From IMG/VR virus record IMGVR_UViG_2728369593_000019: a stretch of 14,079 bases of DNA; one strand, given 5' to 3'. How positions within the stretch are numbered: the first letter of the stretch is position 1; each line of letters starts with the position of its first letter. The notes under the pieces were generated by a model. The model was not told the DNA's origin. It saw only the letters and a list, made by a program, of their open reading frames with translations, and did not search any database. The translations under genes and the position numbers were made by a program. Origin of the DNA: a virus. Taxonomy: Duplodnaviria; Heunggongvirae; Uroviricota; Caudoviricetes. Shown here in pieces: positions 2,582-12,059 of this stretch.

Positions 2582-3252
2582 TGCTCCCCAAATACAAAAC
2601 CAATTTCAGCCAGTGCCTCGTCCATTTTTTCGATGAACTCCGGCACCATCTCGTCAAAACTCGCCATGTACTTTTCATCCCGATTAACCACGACATAATG
2701 CAGGCCTTCACGCTTCATGCGTGGGTCATAGTTGGCAAAATACCAGGCATCTTTTCGCGTCACCCACATGCTGTACTGCACCTGGGCCATGTAAGCCGAC
2801 TTTATGGCCTCGAAACCACCGAGCCGGAACTTCATGAAATCCCGGGAGGTAAACGGGCATTTCAGCTCAAGGCCGTTGCCGTCACTGCATAAACCATCGG
2901 GAGAGCAGGCGGTGCGCATACTTTCGTCGCGATAGATGATCGGGGATTCAGTAACATTCACGCCGGAAGTGAACTCAAACAGGGCTCTGGCGTCGTTCTC
3001 GTACTGTTTTCCCCAGGCCAGCGCCTTAGCGTTAACTTCCGGAGCCACACCGGTGCAAACCTCGGCAAGCAGGGTGTGGAAGTAGGACATTTTCATGTCA
3101 GGCCATTTCTTTCCGGAGCGGGGTTTTGCTATCACGTTGTGAACTTCTGAAGCTGTGATGACGCCGAGCCGTAATTTGTGCCACGCATCATCCCCCTGCA
3201 CGATAGCTCTCACGTCGATCCCGGTACGCTGCAGGATAATGTCCGATGTCAT
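2572..3252 (-). CDS. exo: Lambda-type 5'-3' exonuclease (Red alpha)
   Basis: 226 aa, same length as lambda Exo. Sequence [65 protein letters not shown]... matches lambda Exo nearly residue for residue from memory. Start overlaps the bet stop. Confidence 0.95.
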
Positions 3253-8381: not shown

Positions 8382-8420
8382 CTCACATATCGTGAGTGTT
8401 TTGTCAACTCAATATGTGAG
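8382..8420. promoter_or_regulatory. Candidate left operator pair: two TCAC-N5-GTGA-type inverted repeats in front of the leftward early genes
   Basis: CTCAC-ATATC-GTGAG at 8382-8396 is a perfect inverted repeat. CTCA-ATATG-TGAG at 8408-8420 is a near copy. Same half-site as the three sites between repressor and cro-like gene. A TTGACA hexamer on the minus strand lies between them. Confidence 0.45.
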
Positions 8421-8448
8421 CAATGTTGCTTTTGGATTTTTGATGGAC

Positions 8449-8482
8449 AAAAAAAGCCCTCGCTAATAGCGAGAGCTTTTTG
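8449..8482. terminator. Bidirectional rho-independent terminator downstream of the repressor gene
   Basis: A-run at 8449-8455, stem GCCCTCGC-TAATA-GCGAGAGC (7 of 8 bp paired), T-run at 8477-8481. Sits 26 nt beyond the repressor stop, so the minus-strand reading (U-tract from the A-run) ends the repressor transcript. Confidence 0.6.
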
Positions 8483-8507
8483 ATTGGAATCGAGGGAGAT
8501 TAAAGGC

Positions 8508-8897
8508 TTAGGAGGATTTTTTCTGTTGCCTGCTTCTTAGATATTTTTCCACATACTCATCAAGCTCTTGAAGACGGATTTCGAACAGATCAATCATGCG
8601 TGCTTGTTCCGATCCTGGGAGCTGATTAAACAGTTCTAGCATTTTTTTCTGGTTATCATTTAACCACGAGTAAGTGTTTTCCTGTTCACCGAACATTAAT
8701 TCTGCGGGGGAAATGCCTAGTACCTGGCCGAGGATGATCGCATCCTCAGCCCCCACACTCCTGGTGCCAGCTTCGTAGTTAGCAATACGAGAAGAACCTG
8801 ACCAACCACATAGTTTTGCCAGGTTTCCCATACTTAATCCTCGATTTAGGCGAGTGGCTTTTAGTCGCTCGCCTATTTGTTCTGCAATGGTTTTCAT
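8508..8897 (-). CDS. Prophage repressor, XRE-family helix-turn-helix, DicA/RacR type (no LexA-like S24 peptidase domain)
   Basis: ATG at 8897 with a GGAG ribosome-binding site gives about 129 aa: MKTIAEQIGERLKATRLNRGLSMGNLAKLCGWSGSSRIANYEAGTRSVGAEDAIILGQVLGISPAEL... (helix-turn-helix). C-terminal LELFNQLPGSEQARMIDLFEIRLQEL resembles DicA (LELFNALPESEQ...) as I recall it. Divergent from the cro-like gene. The track ORF extends to 9002 with no ribosome-binding site. Confidence 0.85.
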   Translation of the reverse strand: MKTIAEQIGERLKATRLNRGLSMGNLAKLCGWSGSSRIANYEAGTRSVGAEDAIILGQVLGISPAELMFGEQENTYSWLNDNQKKMLELFNQLPGSEQARMIDLFEIRLQELDEYVEKYLRSRQQKKSS

Positions 8898-8910
8898 AGC
8901 TCCGATTTTA

Positions 8911-8978
8911 TCACGATGTGTGAAATTAGCGGTACTCACGTATCTGTAGTTGATCTTGCTCACGAAATGTGAATAATA
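8911..8978. promoter_or_regulatory. Candidate right operator/promoter region: three TCAC-N5-GTGA-type sites at 25-bp spacing overlapping a rightward sigma70-like promoter
   Basis: TCAC-GATGT-GTGA at 8911-8923, TCAC-GTATC-TGTA at 8936-8948 (imperfect), TCAC-GAAAT-GTGA at 8961-8973. TTGATC at 8950-8955, 17-bp spacer, ATAATA at 8973-8978, oriented towards the cro-like gene. The third operator overlaps the spacer and -10. Confidence 0.55.
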
Positions 8979-8991
8979 GAAACAGGAGGTA

Positions 8992-9237
8992 ATGATGAAC
9001 AAAATTTCAACATATCGAAAACAGCTTGGGCTGTCTCAAAGACAACTTGCTGTTCAGTTAGGGTGGATACAAAGCCGACTGGCAAATTACGAAGCAAATT
9101 TTCGTACCCCTGGGCTAGAGGAGTGCAGAAAAATTGTTTCCACCCTTAATCGGCTTGGTGCTCATTGTGGACTTGACGATGTATTCCCCCCAGACGGTAA
9201 GCATAGCGAAAACAGCATAGGAGCGGTTGATTCATGA
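8992..9237 (+). CDS. Cro-like / YdaS-like helix-turn-helix regulator
   Basis: 81-aa ORF divergent from the repressor. KQLGLSQRQLAVQLGWIQSRLANYE is a helix-turn-helix. AGGAGG ribosome-binding site at 8984-8989; ATGs at 8992 and 8995, the second better spaced. Stop overlaps the next ATG (ATGA at 9234-9237). Confidence 0.75.
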   Translation: MMNKISTYRKQLGLSQRQLAVQLGWIQSRLANYEANFRTPGLEECRKIVSTLNRLGAHCGLDDVFPPDGKHSENSIGAVDS

Positions 9238-9656
9238 AAATCAGGCATGAGCACATCGAATCAGTGTTGTTAGCCCTGGCAGCCGAAAAAGGGCAGGCGT
9301 GGGTCGCTAACGCAATTACTGAAGAATATCTGCGCCAGGGGGGCGGCGAATTGCCCCTGGTACCAGGCAAGGACTGGAACAATCAGCAGAATATCTATCA
9401 CCGTTGGTTGAAAGGTGAAACGAAAGCGCAAAGGGAAAAAATTCAGAAACTGATCCCTGCGGTTCTGGCAATTCTTCCGCGCGAGCTGCGTCACCGACTC
9501 TGCATCTTCGATACCCTGGAACGCCGTGCATTACTGGCGGCGCAGGAAGCGTTGAGTACGGCAATTGATGCGCATGATGATGCAGTCCAGGCTGTTTACC
9601 GGAAAGCACATTTCAGCGGCGGAGGATCGCCCGGCGATTCTGTCGTAGTGCATTGA
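9234..9656 (+). CDS. Hypothetical 140-aa protein translationally coupled to the cro-like gene, in the YdaT/cII position
   Basis: AGGAG ribosome-binding site 10 nt upstream of the ATG at 9234. The cro-like plus 140-aa arrangement matches Rac ydaS-ydaT; the sequence identity to YdaT is not verified. Confidence 0.65.
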   Translation: MKIRHEHIESVLLALAAEKGQAWVANAITEEYLRQGGGELPLVPGKDWNNQQNIYHRWLKGETKAQREKIQKLIPAVLAILPRELRHRLCIFDTLERRALLAAQEALSTAIDAHDDAVQAVYRKAHFSGGGSPGDSVVVH

Positions 9657-9700
9657 TTGAAATTAATCGTGCCGGACTGTTTTGTTCGGTATCAGTTAAA

Positions 9701-10120
9701 TGTAACGCTGCGAGCGTTACAAGGTGAAAACAAATGGCTTCAAACTGGATAAAGCTCGAGGTTATTACGCCGGATAAGCCGGAAATATTCAGGCTTGCTG
9801 AGATTCTGAATATTGATCCAGATGCCGCATTAGGGAAGGTTATTCGCTTCTGGGCATGGGCGGATCAACAAATGATAGACGGTAACGCAGATTGTAACGC
9901 TCGCGGCGTTACAAAAAGTGCAATAGATCGCATTACTTTTATGGCTGGTTTTGCTGATGCGTTAATTCAGGTTGGATGGCTGGTCGAAAATGACGGTGGG
10001 CTTTCTCTACCTAACTTTGAACGTCATAACGGAAAAAGCTCTAAAAAACGGGCGGTTACAAACGAGCGAGTAACAAAAATACGCGAACTGAAACGAAAAG
10101 GTAACGCTGACAGCGTTACA
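9701..10120. repeat. Candidate replication-origin iterons: repeated palindromes GTAACGC-N5-GCGTTAC(A) and half-sites in and just upstream of the initiator gene
   Basis: TGTAACGCTGCGAGCGTTACA at 9701-9721, TGTAACGCTCGCGGCGTTACA at 9893-9913 (extra half-site GGTAACGC at 9881-9888), half-sites GGTTACA and GAGTAACA at 10053-10076, GTAACGCTGACAGCGTTACA at 10101-10120. A GAA-repeat acidic linker follows at 10141-10160. Confidence 0.45.
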
Positions 10121-10522
10121 CAAACGGATCAAAAAGCGTTACCAGAGGAAGAGGAAGAGGAAGATATAAATACTGATCTCCCCCTAAATCCCCCTCGGCA
10201 AAAACGAGCGTCTAAAAAGTTCGAGCCGGAGGCTATTGAGCTGCCCGATTGGTTGCCGGAAACACTCTGGCATGAGTGGGTCCGGTTCAGACAGGCATTG
10301 CGAAAACCGATTCGAACGGAGCAGGGCGCTAACGGGGCGATACGGGAACTGGAAAAATTCCGTCAGCAGGGGTTTACACCTGAGCAGGTGATTCGACACA
10401 GCATCGCCAATGAATACCAGGGCCTGTTCGCGCCGAAAGGTGTTCGGCCTGAGACGTTGCTCCGACAGGTTAACACCGTCTCGTTGCCGGACAGTGCGAT
10501 CCCGCCAGGCTTCAGGGGGTAA
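9734..10522 (+). CDS. Phage replication initiation protein (lambda O-like role; YdaU/DUF1376-like)
   Basis: 262-aa ORF immediately upstream of the DnaC-like gene. Carries the iteron-like repeats in its 5' half and an EEEEEED acidic linker between N- and C-terminal parts. Ribosome-binding site AAGGTGA 7 nt upstream of the ATG. Confidence 0.7.
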   Translation: MASNWIKLEVITPDKPEIFRLAEILNIDPDAALGKVIRFWAWADQQMIDGNADCNARGVTKSAIDRITFMAGFADALIQVGWLVENDGGLSLPNFERHNGKSSKKRAVTNERVTKIRELKRKGNADSVTQTDQKALPEEEEEEDINTDLPLNPPRQKRASKKFEPEAIELPDWLPETLWHEWVRFRQALRKPIRTEQGANGAIRELEKFRQQGFTPEQVIRHSIANEYQGLFAPKGVRPETLLRQVNTVSLPDSAIPPGFRG

Positions 10523-10528
10523 CAGACC

Positions 10529-11275
10529 ATGAAAAATATTGCGACAGGAGGCGTTCTGGAGCGTATCCGCAGACTGACCCCACCACATGTAACCGCCCCA
10601 TTCAGAACGGTTGCGGAGTGGCGCGAGTGGCAACTTGCTGAAGGCCAGAAACGTTGCGAGGAGATCAACCGCCTGAATCGTCAGTTGCGGGTGGAAAAAA
10701 TTCTGAATCGCTCTGGCATCCAGCCGTTGCACCGTAAATGCTCGTTTGCGAATTACCAGGTGCAGAACGACGGCCAGCGATACGCGTTAAGCCAGGCGAA
10801 ATCCATCGCCGATGAACTGATGACCGGGTGTACAAATTTTGCGTTCAGCGGAAAACCTGGTACCGGGAAGAATCACTTAGCGGCAGCTATCGGGAATCGC
10901 CTGCTGAAAGACGGTCAGACAGTGATTGTGGTTACCGTGGCTGATGTTATGAGCGCCCTGCACGCCAGCTATGACGACGGGCAGTCAGGCGAAAAATTTT
11001 TGCGGGAGCTGTGCGAAGTGGATCTGCTGGTTCTTGATGAAATTGGCATTCAGCGCGAGACGAAAAACGAGCAGGTGGTGCTGCACCAGATTGTTGATCG
11101 CCGGACAGCGTCGATGCGCAGCGTGGGGATGCTGACAAACCTGAACTATGAGGCCATGAAAACATTGCTCGGCGAGAGGATTATGGATCGCATGACCATG
11201 AACGGCGGGCGATGGGTGAATTTTAACTGGGAGAGCTGGCGTCCGAATGTCGTCCAGCCAGGAATTGCGAAGTGA
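10529..11275 (+). CDS. DnaC-like helicase loader (IstB-like AAA+ ATPase)
   Basis: 248 aa. Walker [16 protein letters not shown], Walker [10 protein letters not shown], sensor-like RRTASMRS. Follows the initiator gene with a 6-nt gap. Confidence 0.9.
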
Positions 11276-11297
11276 TTTTTACCGGGAGGAAATTTTA

Positions 11298-12059
11298 ATG
11301 GAAACCGTTTTTGATGCACTGAAAGCAATGGGAAAAGCCACGTCGGTAGAACTGGCTGCGCGACTTGATATCAGTCGTGAAGAAGTGCTGAACGAGCTGT
11401 GGGAACTGAAAAAGGCTGGATTCGTTGATAAAAGCGTATACACCTGGCGTGTGGCCGATAACAACGTTCAGCAGGAACATCCAGTGCCGGAAGAACAGCC
11501 GGAAGAAATCGCCACGGCAACAGTGACGAAAATCTCAGAGTGCGATTTAACCGCGACGATTGAACAACGCGGACCACAAACGGCGGATGAACTGGCTACG
11601 CTGTTCGGTACAACATCCCGCAAAGTGGCTTCAACGCTGGCAATGGCAATCAGCAAAGGTCGTCTGATTCGCGTAAATCAGGGCGGTAAATTTCGTTACT
11701 GCATACCGGGCGATAATTTACCAGCAGAGCCGAAAGCTGCATCGGTAGCGGAAACTGATGGTAAAGCCTTTCCTCAGCCTGCATGTGTTGCGTTACCAGT
11801 ACAGGAGGCTGCAACACAGGAAGATATTAAAACAGAAACTGTGGCGGACATTGTGCAGTCGCTGCCATCGTTCACCGAAACGCGAGCGGATGACCTGATT
11901 TTACCATCGCTGCATATGGCAAACCGCGAACTGCGTCGGGCGAAAAGTCATGTCCAGAAGTGGGCGCGAGTCTGCGCCGCGCTGCGGGAGCTGAACAAGC
12001 ACCGGGATATTGTTCGACAGATTACTGATTCTTCCCGCCGTGTTGTATCGGAAAAGTGA
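11298..12059 (+). CDS. Hypothetical protein (253 aa), possible N-terminal winged-helix DNA-binding domain
   Basis: ATG at 11298 with a strong GGGAGGA ribosome-binding site 8 nt upstream. The track's alternative ATG at 11247 has no ribosome-binding site and overlaps the DnaC-like gene. N-terminal segment [30 protein letters not shown] looks helix-turn-helix-like; central part is acidic. Confidence 0.65.

Follow-up and report, generated by a model that had tools for sequence, protein, structure and literature searches.

A candidate replication origin of palindromic half-sites and a polypurine tract within a prophage initiator gene

The origin of phage lambda belongs to a two-gene unit in which the initiator is followed by the helicase loader. 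In the lambda record, four iterons occupy +349 to +433 of O, the part of the gene that encodes the inter-domain linker, and are followed by AAAAGAAAAAAGAAAAGA, a purine run of 18 nucleotides (nt) on the sense strand. Iteron plasmid origins (the RepA/Pi/TrfA class) are comparable in having a winged-helix initiator, repeats phased at about one helical turn and an adjoining unwinding element. The stretch of DNA considered here, referred to as the window, comprises 14,079 nt (IMG/VR record IMGVR_UViG_2728369593_000019) and is an Escherichia coli lambdoid prophage of the Rac-like type. Its replication initiator gene (9734-10522, plus strand; 262 amino acids, aa) directly precedes ydaV, which encodes a DnaC-like helicase loader, in the early operon. 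Palindromes and half-sites are spread from just before the initiator start codon into the linker-coding part of the gene, where they end at a polypurine tract, and together these elements probably constitute a replication origin within the initiator gene, to which the N-terminal domain of the initiator itself would bind. An initial annotation had proposed an origin at 9701-10120, placed within the initiator gene as in lambda. The proposal is supported by selection at the DNA level, concerted change of the palindrome arms, a phased half-site array joined to the tract, a lambda-like position and the exchange of the region as a cassette, in a fitting gene context and with a fitting predicted fold.

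Sites in the window and in described origins

The perfect palindrome GTAACGC-N5-GCGTTAC occurs three times in the window, against 0.04 copies expected, and none of 200 dinucleotide shuffles reaches three. Its 7-mer GTAACGC is found 12 times against 1.25 expected, with 8 of the 12 within 9702-10142. Palindrome A (GTAACGC-TGCGA-GCGTTAC, 9702-9720) lies in the non-coding spacer between ydaT and the initiator gene, 14-32 nt 5' of the ATG and directly 5' of the Shine-Dalgarno sequence AAGGTGA; the initial annotation placed it correctly upstream of the gene, with a distance of 33 nt that is in fact 32 nt from the ATG at 9734. Palindrome B (GTAACGC-TCGCG-GCGTTAC, 9894-9912) encodes C-N-A-R-G-V-T, aa 54-60, in a loop of the N-terminal domain. 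Palindrome C (GTAACGC-TGACA-GCGTTAC, 10101-10119) corresponds to codons 123-129, G-N-A-D-S-V-T, in the inter-domain linker and forms the dyad centre of the core half-site array. All three are exact matches, B and C share one reading frame (xGT AAC GCx ... xGC GTT ACx), and the repeats do reach into the N-terminal coding half, as had been noted. Half-sites accompany the full palindromes, as it had also noted. A forward half-site, GTAACGC at 9882-9888 (plus strand), stands 12 base pairs (bp) 5' of palindrome B and stems from a 12-bp (4-codon 'NADC') tandem duplication found in several Enterobacterales loci; it is not conserved in close E. coli relatives, position 9886 differing in 44 of 56 haplotypes. 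A terminal reverse half-site, GCGTTAC at 10136-10142 (minus strand), uses a frame other than that of the palindromes (GCG TTA CCA, A-L-P) and ends 1 nt 5' of the polypurine tract.

This tract, AGAGGAAGAGGAAGAGGAAGA, is 21 nt long (10144-10164, plus strand), encodes EEEEEE and is the GAA-repeat acidic linker of the initial annotation. A short AT-rich run, TATAAATACTGAT, comes next, and the region 10020-10180 shows an A-rich strand bias with a GC content of 37-47%. The initial annotation had suggested looking for an AT-rich unwinding element just downstream of the repeats; the purine tract and TATAAATACTGAT lie there, and are only modestly AT-rich. The element does not end at 10120, since the functional unit runs about 45 nt further, to at least 10164. 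The spacing of the full palindromes, 192 and 207 bp, is as wide as the approximately 200 bp described earlier as unusual. As a picture of the whole, this description is incomplete: relatives have, at +340 to +410, a tight, lambda-like core with a half-site every 11-12 bp, the window retains a degenerate version of this core at 10101-10142, and the palindromes at 9702 and 9894 read as extra, dispersed sites. In the window, the core is thinned to a forward half-site at 10101, a reverse one at 10113, a gap, and a reverse one at 10136, followed by the Enterobacterial hexamer form of the tract.

The plan shared with lambda goes beyond the order of the two genes. The window array spans +368 to +409 of the initiator gene (+337 to +430 in relatives), in the linker-coding part like the lambda iterons. 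In both systems the sites show dyad symmetry, and a purine-only, AT-richer run of the sense strand comes directly after them. The N-terminal domain and the origin are swapped together in both, forming a specificity cassette, and the C-terminal domain stays with the loader. There are also differences. The N-terminal domain has no detectable homology to lambda O, and the unit is a 7-nt half-site in a forward-dyad-reverse arrangement at 11-12 bp, in contrast to four 18-bp iterons about 20-24 bp apart. The window module has an extra conserved palindrome about 200 bp upstream, in the region that encodes the DNA-binding domain, and Enterobacterales loci carry a further palindrome before the gene. 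The tract of the module is a polypurine repeat, (AGAGA)n or (AGAGGA)n, whereas that of lambda is an A-rich 40-bp stretch, and the loader in the window is DnaC-like while that of lambda is P-like.

Iteron plasmids differ from the window in other respects. Their iterons are 17-22 bp long, whereas the sites here are 7-nt half-sites placed in the coding sequence of the initiator. Neither a DnaA box nor a classical AT-rich 13-mer is seen at the window sites, which belong to a phage or prophage that has its own dedicated helicase loader. In the iteron-plasmid class, inverted half-repeats near rep serve autorepression, which offers a possible analogy for palindrome A.

Several further sequences lie among or beside the sites. 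Degenerate half-sites at 10054-10060 and 10071-10077 were considered as parts of the element and set aside, as they are not conserved in relatives. The same applies to a perfect 11-nt inverted repeat, GGGCGGTTACA / TGTAACCGCCC, at 10050-10060 in the initiator gene and 10588-10598 in ydaV (527 nt apart), which includes a degenerate half-site and is probably due to chance because its first copy is not conserved in relatives. On the minus strand, palindrome C (10119-10101) followed by CTTTTCGTTT scores as intrinsic-terminator-like, antisense to the initiator gene. Just 3' of the tract, a C-run motif, CCCCCTAAATCCCCC (P-L-N-P-P, 10180-10196), is common to K-12 Rac (L001 3019-3036); similar paired C-runs follow the tract in loci L085, L089, L101 and L124 and in PAN70, and may be a mere proline-rich linker.

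Conservation and selection at the level of DNA

Scanning one genome per species gave 71 loci, spanning Enterobacterales, Pseudomonas, Burkholderiales, Xanthomonadales-like taxa, Planctomycetota, Verrucomicrobiota (including Akkermansia), Acidobacteriota and Ignavibacteria. In about 45 of them, GTAAC-N9-GTTAC recurs at matching places in the gene, +136 to +160 and +337 to +391; across these loci the proteins are 35-55% identical, while the hexamer half-site is nearly absent from the other ~6 kb of each locus. Between E. coli and Stieleria or Akkermansia the arms do not differ at all, despite 40-55% protein identity, and the five central bases vary freely. A counterpart of palindrome B occupies +136 to +160 in about 35 of the 71 loci across phyla, and 33 of 55 aligned genes have a perfect 7-N5-7 palindrome at site B, variant arms included. 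Six of nine Enterobacterales loci have a full palindrome at -32 to -44, and no full upstream site is seen outside this order. Since the palindromes are conserved as DNA from E. coli prophages to Planctomycetes, they are most likely lambda-style origin binding sites. The protein that binds them is very likely the initiator itself.

The core was analysed in 40 loci through their half-sites at +300 to +470. Forward copies come first, then one N5 palindrome, then reverse copies, FFRR, FRR and FFFRR being common patterns. The palindrome, with forward half-sites 5' and reverse half-sites 3' of it, falls within +337 to +392 in 39 of these 40, neighbours of the same orientation are spaced by 11-12 bp in 67 of 72 cases, and 77 of the 157 half-sites fall outside any palindrome. 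The last reverse half-site stops 1-2 nt short of the tract in 27 of 34 loci, and a purine run of at least 12 nt, mostly AGAGAAGAGAAGAG, stands at the tract position in 46 of 55. Across loci, the half-site array abuts a near-universal AGAGAAGAGAAG tract.

The same features bear on a different explanation, in which the palindromes act as stem-loops in mRNA, governing stability or translation, or as a signal for primosome assembly or priming in unwound single-stranded DNA. Each palindrome folds into a stem of 8-10 bp (-10.9 to -15.3 kcal/mol, z = -2.6 to -4.3), the arms covary between sub-families such that pairing is maintained, the spacer that would form the loop is free to vary, and the DnaT-like C-terminal domains of some relatives tie to primosome biology. 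A stable fold is, however, trivially expected of any palindrome. Hairpins would leave unexplained both the direct repeats 11-12 bp apart and the half-sites, nearly half of the total, that have no partner at palindrome spacing. Furthermore, the arm sequence of the GTAAC clade is invariant across phyla without compensatory drift, and no Rfam match is obtained for 9400-10700 at E up to 1, which makes this role quite unlikely.

Codon usage separates constraint on the DNA from constraint on the protein. In a codon alignment of the 55 genes, third positions are usually 35-60% conserved, as against 81% (GGT), 95% (AAC), 75% (GCT), 89% (xGC) and 78% (GTT) within palindrome B. Codon tests were restricted to 37 loci with at least 55% GC and used other conserved columns of the same residue as the comparison, or, for Arg, the rest of the same genes. 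Their p values are indicative only because the homologues are related: GGT is used 28 times out of 34 at Gly50 and 33 times out of 144 in the comparison columns (p = 1.7e-10), GTT 27 times out of 35 at Val59 and 37 out of 134 in the comparison (p = 1.3e-7), TTA 21 times out of 23 at the Leu of A-L-P and 2 out of 92 in the comparison (p = 1e-18), and AGA or AGG 68 times out of 77 for Arg within the tract and 38 out of 312 outside it (p = 4e-38). Synonymous positions elsewhere in these genes are clearly randomised. It could still be argued that a conserved peptide, G-N-A-x-S-V-T, merely happens to be encoded by a palindrome, given that both intragenic palindromes lie in one frame, encode N-A-x-x-V-T and specify a motif that is conserved in the protein alignment. 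Such a by-product of coding is scarcely credible: the GGT, GTT, TTA and AGA codons are frozen against genomic GC bias (p = 1e-7 to 1e-38), palindrome A is non-coding, the terminal half-site uses a different frame (A-L-P), and the loop specified by palindrome B is modelled with low confidence and accepts an insertion of 4 aa. With synonymous positions constrained at the sites, the conserved peptide motifs (G-N-A-x-[S/G/C]-V-T, A-L-P and E-K-R-R-E) are best read as the outcome of DNA constraints.

Polymorphism among close relatives points in the same direction. Across 56 close E. coli haplotypes, variation touches 3 of the 42 arm positions and 10 of the 15 spacer positions of the palindromes; for palindrome A alone the figures are 1 of 14 and 4 of 5, and none of the 14 arm positions of palindrome B varies. 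Judging from these comparisons, strong purifying selection acts on the sites at the nucleotide level, not at the level of the protein. The spacers themselves (9709-9713, 9901-9905 and 10108-10112) are polymorphism hot spots, their 10 of 15 comparing with about 17% for the 600-nt region, an excess beyond a simple lack of constraint.

Where the arms do change, they change in concert. Matching positions hold GTCACGC/GCGTGAC in loci L116, L119, L134, L143 and L146, GTTGCGC/GCGCAAC in L117, CTAACGC/GCGTTAG in L133 and ACGTCCGG/CCGGACGT in L153. The replication gene of phage epsilon15 (L156) carries eight GTCCGC/GCGGAC half-sites in clusters at +55 to +115 and +333 to +400, the second of which ends GCGGACC-AGAGAAGAGAAGAGAAGAGAAGA. 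The terminal half-site before the tract varies together with the palindrome arms (GCGTGACC, GCGCAACC, GCGTTAGCT, and GCGGACC-AGAGAAGAG... in epsilon15), and the tract is unchanged where the arms vary between sub-families. All sites of a locus vary together, therefore one factor would read them and co-evolve with the locus.

This factor might in principle be another DNA-binding protein, such as a host factor, CI/Cro, YdaT or YdaW, with a link to the initiator that is merely positional. Several helix-turn-helix (HTH) proteins are encoded nearby (the repressor, the cro-like protein, YdaT and YdaW), and the case for initiator binding is built on sequence comparison. Nevertheless, the sites are kept in at least six phyla amid differing neighbours. 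The upstream genes vary, and the downstream partner always codes for a helicase loader or a helicase: in distant loci these genes are DnaC/IstB-like (L105, L107, L129), lambda-P-like (L096, L143 and, weakly, L134) or encode a DnaB-type helicase (L110, L133); in PAN70 the partners are DnaC and then DnaB. The sole constant gene across loci is the one for the N-terminal domain that houses the sites, and the site sequence tracks the sub-family of that domain. YdaT has a different motif, TTGATT-N6-AATCAA (PMC9986795), and a host factor of one specificity in E. coli and Planctomycetes that is altered in epsilon15 is implausible. A reader other than the initiator is thus very unlikely. No clean specificity rule emerged from helix 61-92 for the GTAAC and GTCAC sub-families; L116 combines GTCAC arms with a GTAAC-type helix.

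Two further patterns were observed across the loci. GATCG (Asp-Arg, GAT CGN; 9926-9930), 14-20 nt 3' of palindrome B, is widely conserved, its Asp codon being GAT in 69% of genes, GC-rich genomes included, and many loci have a further reverse half-site (GTTAC, Leu as TTA) between palindrome B and GATCG. Five GATC sites fall within 9815-10178, and over the window as a whole GATC (the Dam site) is not enriched. The Verrucomicrobiota sub-family 'MRRPWIKIE' (L121, L123, L125-L127, L132, L136, L139 and L141) has one GTAACG half-site 57-69 nt 5' of the gene, lacks the polypurine tract and shares a longer motif, AACGCTCCAA, upstream and in the linker region; its element may be differently organised.

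Exchange with K-12 Rac and the operator alternative

The prophage Rac of E. coli K-12 is of the same type as the window and has the same gene order: repressor, cro-like/ydaS, ydaT, initiator, ydaV and ydaW. In pairwise alignments, the two share DNA homology up to the ydaT stop (~9654) and again from a point within or beyond the purine tract (~10150-10165); a megablast match to K-12-type Rac begins only at window position 10161. These limits define an exchange cassette (9655-10150, plus strand), replaced as one block, that consists of exactly the spacer with palindrome A, the N-terminal domain coding sequence with palindrome B, the array around palindrome C and the tract. At the protein level, the initiator is 81% identical to K-12 YdaU over the C-terminal 124 aa (aa 139-262), while the N-terminal 138 aa are unrelated, DUF1376 being present N-terminally in K-12 YdaU and absent from the window protein. 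As read from these alignments, the swap has the classic signature of a specificity cassette made of an origin and its binding domain.

K-12 ydaU has linker-coding repeats of its own, TGTTCAAACA, direct and inverted and followed by an AT-rich stretch, which differ in sequence from those of the window. They form a family, (G)ATGTTCAAACA, within ydaU (L001 2646-2963), with direct copies at 2857, 2890, 2923 and 2935 and an inverted copy at 2953; the AT-rich stretch follows at 2977-3020, in a place equivalent to that of the window array. These repeats and the AT-rich stretch are a candidate for the sequence of oriJ, the genetically defined origin of K-12 Rac. NC_000913 has no rep_origin feature for oriJ, the sources searched gave no nucleotide-level definition, and primers described as 'framing oriJ' in the supplement of PMC3945230 map within ydaV (L001 3626-3780) and not within ydaU. 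The published nucleotide position of oriJ thus appears unsettled in these sources. Anchoring the lambda analogy on the position of K-12 oriJ was considered and dropped as uninformative, as the only primers found lie in ydaV, where no repeat array was detected.

The location of these primers is one of the points in favour of an alternative that the initial annotation had also raised, namely that the sites are autoregulatory operators only, at which the initiator or another regulator limits transcription or translation of the initiator-loader operon, with the true origin elsewhere. Palindrome A lies between ydaT and the initiator gene and touches the Shine-Dalgarno sequence, 19-bp sites of dyad symmetry are typical of operators, and the full sites are dispersed at intervals of about 200 bp. 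Against this, the sole sigma-70-like site in 8400-10700 is at 8950-8977, by a simple consensus match that weak promoters could escape, so that no promoter-like site lies near any palindrome, the upstream one included. The upstream site is absent outside Enterobacterales, whereas the intragenic sites, array and tract are conserved across phyla, and a phased half-site array joined to a conserved polypurine tract is not operator-like. In addition, no repeat array is found in ydaV, the region of the K-12 primers included. That the sites are operators only is rather unlikely on this evidence. An operator function may hold for the upstream site, and autoregulation by palindrome A alone is compatible with an origin within the initiator gene.

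The initiator family, a proposed mechanism and neighbouring features

The initiator consists of an N-terminal winged-helix domain (~aa 1-115), a linker (aa 116-150) and a C-terminal YdaU-type domain (aa 139-262). The winged helix is predicted from a structural model of moderate quality, in which the segment containing the palindrome B-encoded residues (aa 49-60) is a low-confidence loop that accommodates the 4-aa insertion of relatives. The protein is a full-length match to phrog_2509, 'replication initiation protein' (E = 8e-90), and has no Pfam domain at E up to 10, Phage_rep_O and PF07120/DUF1376 included. Its only O-like match is phrog_678 ('O-like'), over aa 77-236, and a 19-residue match to the C-terminus of DnaT (E = 0.007) scores 16 bits against a cut-off of 201. 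By hhalign, the N-terminal domain (alignment A1) matches lambda O with a probability of 0.15%, and against K-12 YdaU/DUF1376 only the C-terminal 124 aa align, with no homology of the N-terminal domain; the profile is shallow (Neff 2.7), leaving room for remote homology.

The initiator represents a large, so far uncharacterised family with no detectable homology to lambda O. A word-indexed search found 77 relatives of the N-terminal domain, and an exhaustive search (E up to 1e-3) found 6,689 cluster representatives, a census of ~6,700 clusters at 50% identity. The domain is almost always N-terminal, in proteins of 230-320 aa whose C-termini vary, and some RefSeq records call the protein 'phage replication initiator YdaU family protein'. 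This module is present in 679 of 5,426 complete E. coli genomes, about 1 in 8. Epsilon15 gp42, Xanthomonas CP2 ORF40, PAN70 gp54 and the TL-2011b protein ('primosomal protein I / DnaT-like') share the N-terminal domain family (34-65% identity) and the site architecture, and differ in the C-terminal domain, which is of the DnaT-like PF17948 type. No origin is annotated at the sites in these four records; that of epsilon15 annotates only repressor and IHF binding sites, 3' of the replication gene. Likewise, the sites are undescribed in the searchable literature on oriJ, ydaU, the site motif, the polypurine tract, the epsilon15 origin and the 'Eru' replication regions of Stx phages.

For initiator binding, unwinding, helicase loading and the roles of palindromes A and B, we infer the following sequence of events. 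Derepression would yield an early rightward transcript that starts at the promoter-like site (8950-8977) and covers the cro-like gene, ydaT, the initiator gene and ydaV. Initiator dimers would then occupy the 19-bp palindromes, with more subunits on the flanking half-sites one helical turn apart in the core (10101-10142), and the resulting complex may destabilise the adjoining purine-rich, AT-richer stretch at 10144-10176. The polypurine tract is proposed to serve as the unwinding or helicase-loading element, at which the C-terminal YdaU/DnaT-like domain would bring in the complex of the DnaC-like YdaV with DnaB, so that the host helicase is loaded. Palindromes A and B, about 400 and 200 bp upstream, would be auxiliary and may raise the local initiator concentration or loop the DNA. 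Palindrome A touches the ribosome-binding site and so may also damp initiator expression, throttling read-through or translation.

Several observations weigh against an origin of this kind. The array in the window is degenerate, with three good half-sites compared with four to seven in relatives, and the modestly AT-rich tract is no classical DNA unwinding element (DUE). The distance from palindrome B to the array ranges from 189 to 231 bp with no common helical phase by our own arithmetic; a fixed loop geometry is therefore unsupported, and a looping role is speculative. The homologues compared are not phylogenetically independent. The K-12 oriJ primers lie in ydaV, as described above, and the searchable literature yielded no experiment on binding or origin activity of this module.

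If the origin is confirmed, a replication module carried by about one in eight complete E. coli genomes and by the known phages epsilon15, Xanthomonas CP2, PAN70 and TL-2011b would have its origin defined at the sequence level. A half-site array followed by AGAGAAGAGAAG within an initiator gene would then be a transferable rule for origin prediction in thousands of phages and prophages across phyla. The distinctive traits of the module are its 7-nt half-sites in a forward-dyad-reverse array, the dispersed palindromes within the region coding for the DNA-binding domain and the near-universal polypurine repeat. It offers a clean natural case of amino-acid conservation driven by an overlapping DNA signal, and its variant-half-site sub-families are a ready-made series for the joint change of initiator and origin specificity. 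The conserved polypurine tract poses the question of how origins that lack a classical AT-rich element open. A bolder generalisation, tentative and rather doubtful as it stands, is that throughout a family of ~6,700 clusters in at least six phyla the needs of the origin dictate the peptide motifs G-N-A-x-S-V-T, A-L-P and R-E-E-K-R-R-E, that the whole origin fits within the coding sequence of the DNA-binding domain and linker, and that a universal (AGAGA)n tract, instead of an AT-rich DUE, is opened or loaded with helicase, the tract perhaps being read as single-stranded DNA by the DnaT-like C-terminal domains or adopting a non-B structure.

The neighbouring genes complete the prophage setting. 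Upstream are genes for a CI/RacR-like repressor (8508-9002, minus strand), a cro-like HTH protein (8992-9237) and a YdaT/CII-like protein (9234-9656). Downstream, the initiator's partner gene ydaV (10529-11275, plus strand) matches PF01695 IstB_IS21 (E = 1.5e-19), NCBIfam PRK12377 (E = 1e-153), the DnaC equivalog (E = 9e-91) and phrog_50, DnaC-like helicase loader, and is followed by the gene for YdaW, DUF1627 (11247-12059). Positions 9600-10600 are 100% identical to E. coli strain C25, whose copy is integrated beside yebY. The YdaT operator motif has seven matches in the window at up to two mismatches, against 1.25 expected. One, at 9227-9244, lies at the junction of the cro-like gene and ydaT, another, at 2115-2132, just 5' of xis/int, and a third, at 9653-9670, overlaps the ydaT stop about 45 nt 5' of palindrome A, positions that are reminiscent of lambda pRE, po/oop and pI.

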